Shown in pieces: positions 17,755 to 18,108 of a DNA stretch of 64,000 nt. The first letter of the stretch is position 1. Every line of letters begins with the position of its first letter. The stretch lies in assembly GCF_003018255.1 (NCBI RefSeq), contig NZ_CP027440.1. One strand, given 5' to 3'. A program made the position numbers and the translations under genes. The stretch is from Escherichia coli (lineage in GTDB: Bacteria > Pseudomonadota > Gammaproteobacteria > Enterobacterales > Enterobacteriaceae). The notes under the pieces are model-generated. The model did no database searches and was not told the origin of the DNA. It saw nothing but the letters and a program-made list of their open reading frames with translations.

Positions 17755-18108
17755 CGCCATTTACCTTCATGATAGTTCAATTCGAATCAACATGTGATTG
17801 GTTTTGATTAATCCTGACACTATTTTTTCAGGAAGGCAATGACCATTTTTTGACTTTTTGCCAGGGAAGTTGTTGTTGATTTTGAGTGTGGAAAGATTTA
17901 ATGGAATGTGTAATTCAATTAACTAAATGAATTTAAATGAATAATTATTTCGTTGTGTGAATCCCACTCTATCCATGTGGAATTATTTGCGGGTCGCGTC
18001 ACATTTAATCATAAATAATCTTGTTGTGATTACTTTTGAAAATTAGAGTGAGTGCACAACATTCCGGGTGTGTGGAATACCCGGTTACCTCTTCTTCAGG
18101 AGATCGTT
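17755..18108. promoter_or_regulatory. Divergent ulaG / ulaABCDEF control region
   Basis: 354-bp AT-rich intergenic region between divergently oriented ulaG and ulaA; in K-12 this region carries UlaR, CRP and IHF sites (established knowledge; individual sites not mapped here). Confidence 0.6.

Follow-up and report, generated by a model that had tools for sequence, protein, structure and literature searches.

The 354 bp separating ulaG from ulaA in this Escherichia coli strain are very probably an ordinary region of divergent control in the L-ascorbate (ula) regulon, equivalent in function to their K-12 counterpart. The biology of the region is already known; the leader hairpin, the map obtained by comparison and the quantisation of operator spacing by helical turns refine a known system rather than reveal one of a new kind. 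The window (the whole 64-kb stretch of DNA analysed, to which all positions refer) encodes ulaG and ulaA divergently transcribed around the spacer, with ulaR downstream of ulaG, as identified from open reading frames (ORFs) and NCBIfam equivalogs. The following features define the locus:

17755..18108, no strand: ulaG/ulaA divergent intergenic control region, 354 bp, 35.0% GC
16690..17754, minus strand: ulaG CDS, L-ascorbate-6-phosphate lactonase, 354 aa (NCBIfam equivalog NF008688, 715 bits; annotated as ulaG in strain N3 and K-12)
18109..19506, plus strand: ulaA CDS, ascorbate PTS IIC, 465 aa (NCBIfam NF006919, above cut-off; annotated accordingly in N3 and K-12)
15827..16582, minus strand: ulaR CDS, DeoR-family repressor (NCBIfam equivalog)
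17763..17768, minus strand: ulaG Shine-Dalgarno GAAGGT, a purine-rich block kept as GAAGG, AGGAG or GAGGG in all aligned genera
18098..18102, plus strand: ulaA Shine-Dalgarno AGGAG, with GGAG invariant in 71 aligned leaders

Exactly 354 bp lie between the start codons bounding the spacer (ulaG 17754-17752, minus strand; ulaA 18109-18111, plus strand). Strain N3 carries an identical stretch, and the counterparts in N3 and K-12 are both annotated as the ulaG-ulaA spacer. UlaR scored over its own equivalog cut-off, with SrlR, GlpR, AgaR and DeoR as weaker NCBIfam matches. The K-12 reference was the MG1655 spacer (NC_000913.3, 4419626-4419979, 354 bp), which aligned without gaps. A first, sequence-only reading had presented the region as conserved biology, and this is borne out by its same length, by the 350 of 354 bases shared with K-12 (98.9%, no indels, four SNPs) and by a UlaR protein identical to that of K-12 at 251 of 251 residues.

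The same reading had described a long, AT-rich divergent region with several A/T tracts, and the composition agrees with it. The GC content of the spacer contrasts with the 51.5% of the whole window, where equally AT-rich 354-bp windows account for just 0.9% of the total. Three T5-T6 tracts (17823, 17846 and 17855) and five A/T runs of at least eight bases are present. The AT-richness is uneven, with about 31-33% GC at 17755-18052 and 50% in the final 56 bp, which form the ulaA leader. It had also been stated that UlaR, CRP and IHF act on this region in K-12, which matches published statements and genomic SELEX, where UlaR was located in the ulaG-ulaA spacer, with a second peak upstream of ulaR. 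According to the literature, ulaABCDEF is repressed by UlaR and IHF and activated by CRP, and deletion of ihf leads to derepression of ulaADEFG. Two UlaR sites are described for the ulaG promoter (ulaGp), and the location of IHF is stated as unknown in at least one recent paper.

The regulatory elements were mapped by phylogenetic footprinting, for which the ulaG-ulaA spacers of 80 Enterobacterales ulaG loci were extracted and aligned. The coordinates given for sites and starts (operators, CRP, IHF and promoters) are derived from conservation and are not measured positions. Spacers from outside Escherichia were just 32-64% identical to the window, so that conserved blocks are conspicuous. Two of these blocks are arrays of short repeats, one on each side of the spacer:

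17775..17819, no strand: ulaG-side operator array of putative UlaR sites, five pentamers in exact 10-bp phase, namely GTTCA 17775 (+), AATCA 17785 (+), AATCA 17799..17795 (-), AATCA 17809..17805 (-) and TGTCA 17819..17815 (-)
17997..18041, no strand: ulaA-side operator array of putative UlaR sites, five pentamers in exact 10-bp phase, namely CGTCA 17997 (+), AATCA 18007 (+), AATCT 18017 (+), AATCA 18031..18027 (-) and TTTCA 18041..18037 (-)

The pentamers show little or no variation in 75-77 species. Over the same 75-77 species, the ulaG-side consensus reads nnTCAaaatnAATCA, AATCAaAAcaAATCA and TGnCAgtATnAATCA, and in the conservation profile the ulaA-side array is the best-conserved part of the region. 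The repeated unit, TCA-N5-AATCA, occurs on both sides, and five of its eight exact matches in the whole 64 kb fall within these 354 bp. Allowing at most one mismatch, the spacer contains eight matches, against an average of 1.2 and at most 6 in 2000 composition-matched Markov shuffles. A third copy of TGTGATTnnTTTTGA at 17871-17885 was considered as an operator and dropped, as it is not conserved outside Escherichia.

A further array of this kind was detected outside the spacer:

16592..16637, minus strand: third phased pentamer array, upstream of ulaR, with TTTCC, TTTCA, CATCT, AATCA and TATCG at 11/10/10/10-bp spacing

This array is highly conserved across genera and coincides with the SELEX peak of UlaR upstream of ulaR, which suggests that UlaR regulates its own gene; ulaR is usually described as constitutive. 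Given that a third phased array occurs where SELEX independently places UlaR, we infer that UlaR recognises the phased (A)ATCA pentamers. The recognition code proposed from this comparison would consist of five pentamers in 10-bp phase at three sites, including the one upstream of ulaR. A conserved sequence is reportedly common to all four operators. At the nucleotide level, this conservation-based pentamer map should be modestly useful for work on ula or on DeoR-family repressors, as should the candidate IHF position, the quantised operator spacing and the covarying leader hairpin described below.

Conserved promoter elements and a candidate CRP site were found next to, or overlapping, the two spacer arrays:

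17811..17839, minus strand: putative ulaG promoter, with -35 TTGCCT (17839..17834), a 17-bp spacer, extended -10 TG (17819..17818) and -10 CAGGAT (17816..17811)
18021..18049, plus strand: putative ulaA promoter, with -35 TTGTTG (18021-18026), a 17-bp spacer and -10 TAGAGT (18044-18049)
17985..18006, plus strand: candidate CRP site ATTTGCGGGTCGCGTCACATTT from a consensus scan, with its core at 17988-18003 and its centre at 17995.5

Among 77 species, the columns of the ulaG promoter are kept in 71-77 (TTGC) and 75-77 (TG) of them, and the -10 bases A (17815), A (17812) and T (17811) in 77, 73 and 77, respectively. Transcription of ulaG is predicted to start at about 17804, which corresponds to K-12 position 4419675, giving a 50-nt leader with the conserved Shine-Dalgarno. 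On the other side, AGAGT (18045-18049) within the ulaA -10 shows a mean conservation of 0.96 across non-Escherichia genera, and the predicted ulaA start lies at about 18056, corresponding to K-12 position 4419927. The Cappable-seq supplements that we searched contained no start-site coordinates within this range. In the CRP site (TGCGG-N6-TCACA), conservation across genera is confined to the half-sites, the 6-bp spacer being variable; the left half matches TGTGA at just three of five bases. The centre of the site would fall at about -60.5/-61.5 from the putative ulaA start, a class I position. Reportedly, cAMP-CRP affects only ulaABCDEF and has no action on ulaG. The ulaG array extends from about -15 to +30 of the putative ulaG promoter, and the ulaA array from about -59 to -15 of the ulaA promoter, overlapping the right CRP half; both placements fit repression by occlusion.

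The ulaG promoter assigned here conflicts with a second consensus promoter, ATCACA-18-TATCAT, which was returned by our scan of the region and is also listed by Shimada 2014. The -10 of the latter is not conserved, and we rejected it as the main ulaG promoter given that a start 7 nt downstream would sit inside the conserved Shine-Dalgarno; it is kept as an alternative. An in-frame ATG (17758-17760, minus strand) also precedes the annotated ulaG start by two codons, giving MAMSKVK, and lies 9 nt downstream of the consensus -10 TATCAT (17774..17769). Only Escherichia shows this arrangement and, as it is not conserved outside this genus, the upstream ATG is probably irrelevant.

Between the arrays, most of the sequence is free to change, and the segment 17845-17981 averages just 35% identity to the window. 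The sole conserved block in the central spacer, at 17919-17935, contains the following element:

17920..17932, minus strand: IHF-like core ATTCATTTAGTTA, two mismatches to WATCAANNNNTTR, with an A/T-rich 5' flank at 17933-17950

In other genera, the aligned block on the minus strand reads AATCAAnnnnTTA, the IHF consensus, which is found at the same offset with at most one mismatch in 21 sequences; perfect consensus matches in the central segment number 10 overall. These data make 17920-17932 a candidate IHF position. With at most one mismatch, the sole consensus match in the E. coli spacer is at 17785-17797, over operator pentamers, and it was set aside as probably coincidental.

The length of the spacer is restricted in a way that its sequence is not. 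The distance between invariant anchor bases of the two arrays, determined in 81 sequences, was 222 bp in all six Escherichia sequences and 221 bp in three others (the 221-222 class includes Pseudescherichia and relatives), 230-234 bp in 69 sequences from most genera (typically about 232 bp) and 241 bp in Hafnia (n = 1). Only two sequences, with 227 and 236 bp, were outliers, and the remaining 79 of 81 belong to the classes 221-222, 230-234 and 241. The 10 bp missing in Escherichia belong to the interval from the central block to the ulaA array (102 vs 112 bp). Despite about 35% identity, the distances fall into whole-turn classes: the spacer is free in sequence, and its length is quantised at intervals of roughly one helical turn. 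A loop formed through a repressor requires this geometry, which supports the published looping model, with an IHF bend that would lie in mid-spacer.

The central spacer could instead hide an unannotated gene, for a small protein or an sRNA, rather than serve as loop DNA alone. RNA polymerase holoenzyme binds the spacer in vitro, a consensus prediction placed the hexamers TTAACT-15-GATAAT in its centre, with GATAAT as a predicted ulaA -10-like hexamer (Shimada 2014), and several ORFs of 21-36 aa are present. These ORFs, however, all have GTG or TTG as their start codon, and the sequence around them is just about 35% identical from one genus to another; we rejected them as genes on account of the non-ATG starts and the unconserved sequence. 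A search of both strands against Rfam 15 at a permissive threshold found no family near its gathering score: the best matches reached 18.8 and 12.4 bits against gathering values of 60 and 65, and both are eukaryotic chance matches. What the spacer keeps is its length class and not its sequence, and a hidden gene is highly improbable.

The loop reading would bring these elements together as follows. In the published model, a UlaR tetramer binds four operators, located at both promoters, and both sets are needed for full repression. Here, the operators would correspond to the two arrays of five (A)ATCA pentamers phased at 10 bp, the ulaG array covering -15 to +30 and the ulaA array -59 to -15 with the right CRP half. 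Their separation of 222 bp would represent a whole number of helical turns, and the arrays would be joined by a DNA loop in which IHF bending assists, as described in the literature, with the bend probably at the conserved central block. Each promoter is reportedly dependent on the operators of the other. Upon induction, L-ascorbate-6-phosphate would release UlaR from its tetrameric form as dimers that do not bind, as the literature describes, and cAMP-CRP near -61.5 would then activate ulaABCDEF.

Against this map, the four differences from K-12 can be placed individually. They are, in the order window/K-12, 17791 C/T, 17888 G/A, 17940 A/G and 17947 A/G. None of the four is inside a pentamer, a CRP half-site, a promoter hexamer, a Shine-Dalgarno or the stem of the leader hairpin described below, and all four columns are freely variable among genera. 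Position 17791 is the single base separating two inverted pentamer pairs, and it is A or T in other genera and C or T in Escherichia. Across genera, column 17940 is A in 30, G in 18 and T in 16 sequences, the G of K-12 being the odd one out within Escherichia, and column 17947 is T in 48, with 7-8 each of G, C and A. The sequence-only reading had proposed an alignment with K-12 in search of operator polymorphisms and had named identity to K-12 as the one outcome that would count against it: the two regions are not identical, and the operator polymorphisms did not materialise.

Of 5426 complete E. coli genomes, 5218 contain the spacer, which was at least 99% identical to the window allele in 488 genomes, 95-99% identical in 3608 and 90-95% identical in 1121. 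A 33-mer with C17791 was present exactly in 329 genomes, and one with A17940 and A17947 in 432, while the K-12 33-mer at the place of 17940/17947 was found in just 355, including the K-12 laboratory derivatives MG1655 and C600. The window variants are minority lineage alleles. The divergent alleles of E. coli, with 24-27 differences, spare the pentamers and the promoter hexamers, their changes being confined to the central spacer, the CRP spacer and the hairpin loop.

It might be argued that these SNPs form a functional regulatory polymorphism, in which the G-to-A changes at 17940 and 17947 strengthen an A/T element adjacent to IHF, or H-NS binding, and make loop-mediated repression of ula tighter in this lineage than in K-12. 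The two substitutions are located 8-15 bp 5' of the IHF-like core, within its A/T-rich flank, and raise the A/T content; the spacer has been flagged as H-NS-associated (Shimada 2014), and the A...A haplotype, common to about 432 genomes, is a stable lineage allele. In contrast, both columns vary freely across genera, at 17940 it is the K-12 base that is exceptional in Escherichia, and other E. coli alleles tolerate a further 17-20 SNPs in the spacer. The change at 17940 also alters the -10-like hexamer of Shimada 2014, GATAAT in K-12 and AATAAT in the window, with an equal number of matches. A small quantitative effect of the two SNPs is conceivable, and nothing suggests one; a functional polymorphism is improbable. 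Given that the constrained elements are all identical to those of K-12 and that the four SNPs fall at unconstrained positions, ula regulation is expected to be unchanged. In practical terms, the control of ascorbate utilisation appears intact and equivalent to that of K-12, and no regulatory difference is to be expected from this region.

The control region is more similar to K-12 than the genes around it. In 16690-22515, DNA identity to K-12 was 93.3% for ulaC, 94.2% for ulaF and 94.8% for ulaG, within a range of 93-97% for the ula coding sequences, while ulaR reached 98.4% and the spacer 98.9%, with zero differences at 17948-18281. The ula locus looks mosaic, and constraint, a small recombination patch or the two together could explain the low divergence of the spacer. 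Taken by itself, a short K-12-like recombination patch, rather than purifying selection, would account for the 17729-18281 segment having just four differences and for the identity at 17948-18281 extending over 173 bp of the ulaA coding sequence. In the flanks, up to 8-13 differences are found per 100 bp, and the E. coli spacer alleles are deeply split, at about 93% and 98% identity. On the other hand, the stretch with zero differences coincides with the most constrained part of the region (CRP site, array, promoter and leader), and the density of differences in the flanks is itself patchy. We regard the patch as possible and as the less likely account; it and selection are not mutually exclusive, and the role of the region is unchanged under either. 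A natural loss of the ascorbate operon was observed in E. coli E138 (NZ_AP022351.1, locus 3217-4146), in which an IS1 is located in the ulaG-ulaA spacer after about 216 bp and ulaA, ulaB, ulaC, ulaD and most of ulaE are deleted.

The ulaA leader, downstream of the predicted start, contains one additional conserved feature:

18064..18084, plus strand: RNA hairpin in the ulaA 5' UTR, CCGGGUGU / loop GUGGA / AUACCCGG, with an 8-bp stem present in both the MFE and the centroid fold

A hairpin occurs at the equivalent place in nearly all of 71 orthologous leaders, with quite different stem sequences. The mean z-score of the leader folds was -1.1 over the 71 leaders, which is weak for any single sequence. 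A covariance model based on 20 sequences retrieved 69 leaders, in an alignment fitted to the structure, which inflates covariation figures: in this structure-fitted alignment, 92% of the cells were paired, double-sided changes were found in six of six pairs, and compensatory cells numbered 85 against 23 +/- 5 in shuffles. When the partners were slid, pairing dropped to about 40%. RNAalifold on a plain MAFFT alignment of the 71 leaders returned no structure, the hairpins being misaligned there. Pairing is kept by compensatory changes in at least 60 Enterobacterales species, with no conservation of sequence, and the E. coli SNPs at 18072, 18073 and 18075 affect only the loop.

The frequent G-U pairs argue for a structure of the plus-strand RNA rather than a DNA palindrome. 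As no U-tract follows it, the hairpin is not an intrinsic terminator, and a role in mRNA stability or translation context is favoured. It had no Rfam match, and no description of it was found in the papers searched. We tentatively raise the possibility, without considering it the likelier one, that the hairpin acts in cis as a hitherto undescribed RNA element of the ascorbate operon, for example as a determinant of mRNA stability, protein binding or ribosome standby. If true, regulation at the post-transcriptional level would be added to a system for which UlaR, CRP and IHF are regarded as the only controls.

The closest comparison is the K-12 ulaG-ulaABCDEF region (Campos et al. 2002, 2004; Garces et al. 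2008), with which the stretch shares the locus, the flanking genes, the 354-bp length and the UlaR protein. The published K-12 features, namely two operators per promoter, a shared sequence, cooperating operator sets, help from IHF and CRP action on ulaA, fit the anatomy described here. The differences from K-12 are the four SNPs outside conserved motifs and the flanking coding sequences, which are notably more diverged than the control region. Looped systems of other operons offer a second comparison. Like the loops assisted by architectural proteins (gal with HU, and IHF-assisted loops) and the helical-phase-dependent loops of lac and ara, ula has two operator sets, in its case about 21-22 helical turns apart, with a putative bend site between them and a distance that changes by whole turns across genera; unlike in the gal, lac and ara loops, the phase dependence in ula is inferred from comparative spacing only. 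Multi-site binding and looping are also known in DeoR/GlpR-family systems, such as deoO1/O2/OE, the tandem glp operators and AgaR. By analogy with these, ula would combine half-sites phased by one helical turn, distant cooperating operator sets and a sugar-phosphate inducer. It differs from them in the ula-specific (A)ATCA pentamer and in the five-pentamer arrangement with an orientation switch, the two arrays mirroring each other.

Divergence from K-12 elsewhere in the window, which the sequence-only reading had pointed out, was evident in a 10-kb replacement, in the absence of ytfI and chpSB and in the 93-97% identity of the ula coding sequences. The window is collinear with K-12 at about 97-98% identity, with four exceptions. 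A 10.1-kb segment (24739-34870) stands in place of K-12 yjfZ, between rplI and ytfA, and encodes a HipB-like/HipA-like pair, an MFS transporter, an FAD-dependent oxidoreductase, a CoA-transferase, an enoyl-CoA hydratase, a sugar-phosphate isomerase-like protein and an SDR. K-12 ytfI (about 1.2 kb) is absent from the strain (window 44661-44666), as is the chpS-chpB toxin-antitoxin pair of about 650 bp (window 54326-54470), and about 100 bp of K-12 downstream of rnr are missing (window 7351-7361). Finally, a 10-bp perfect inverted repeat, CCGGATAGCG...CGCTATCCGG, is located at 16640-16680 on the minus strand, between the ulaG stop codon and the array upstream of ulaR. This repeat could represent a terminator or a REP-like hairpin, and other genera carry a different GC-rich hairpin in its place.
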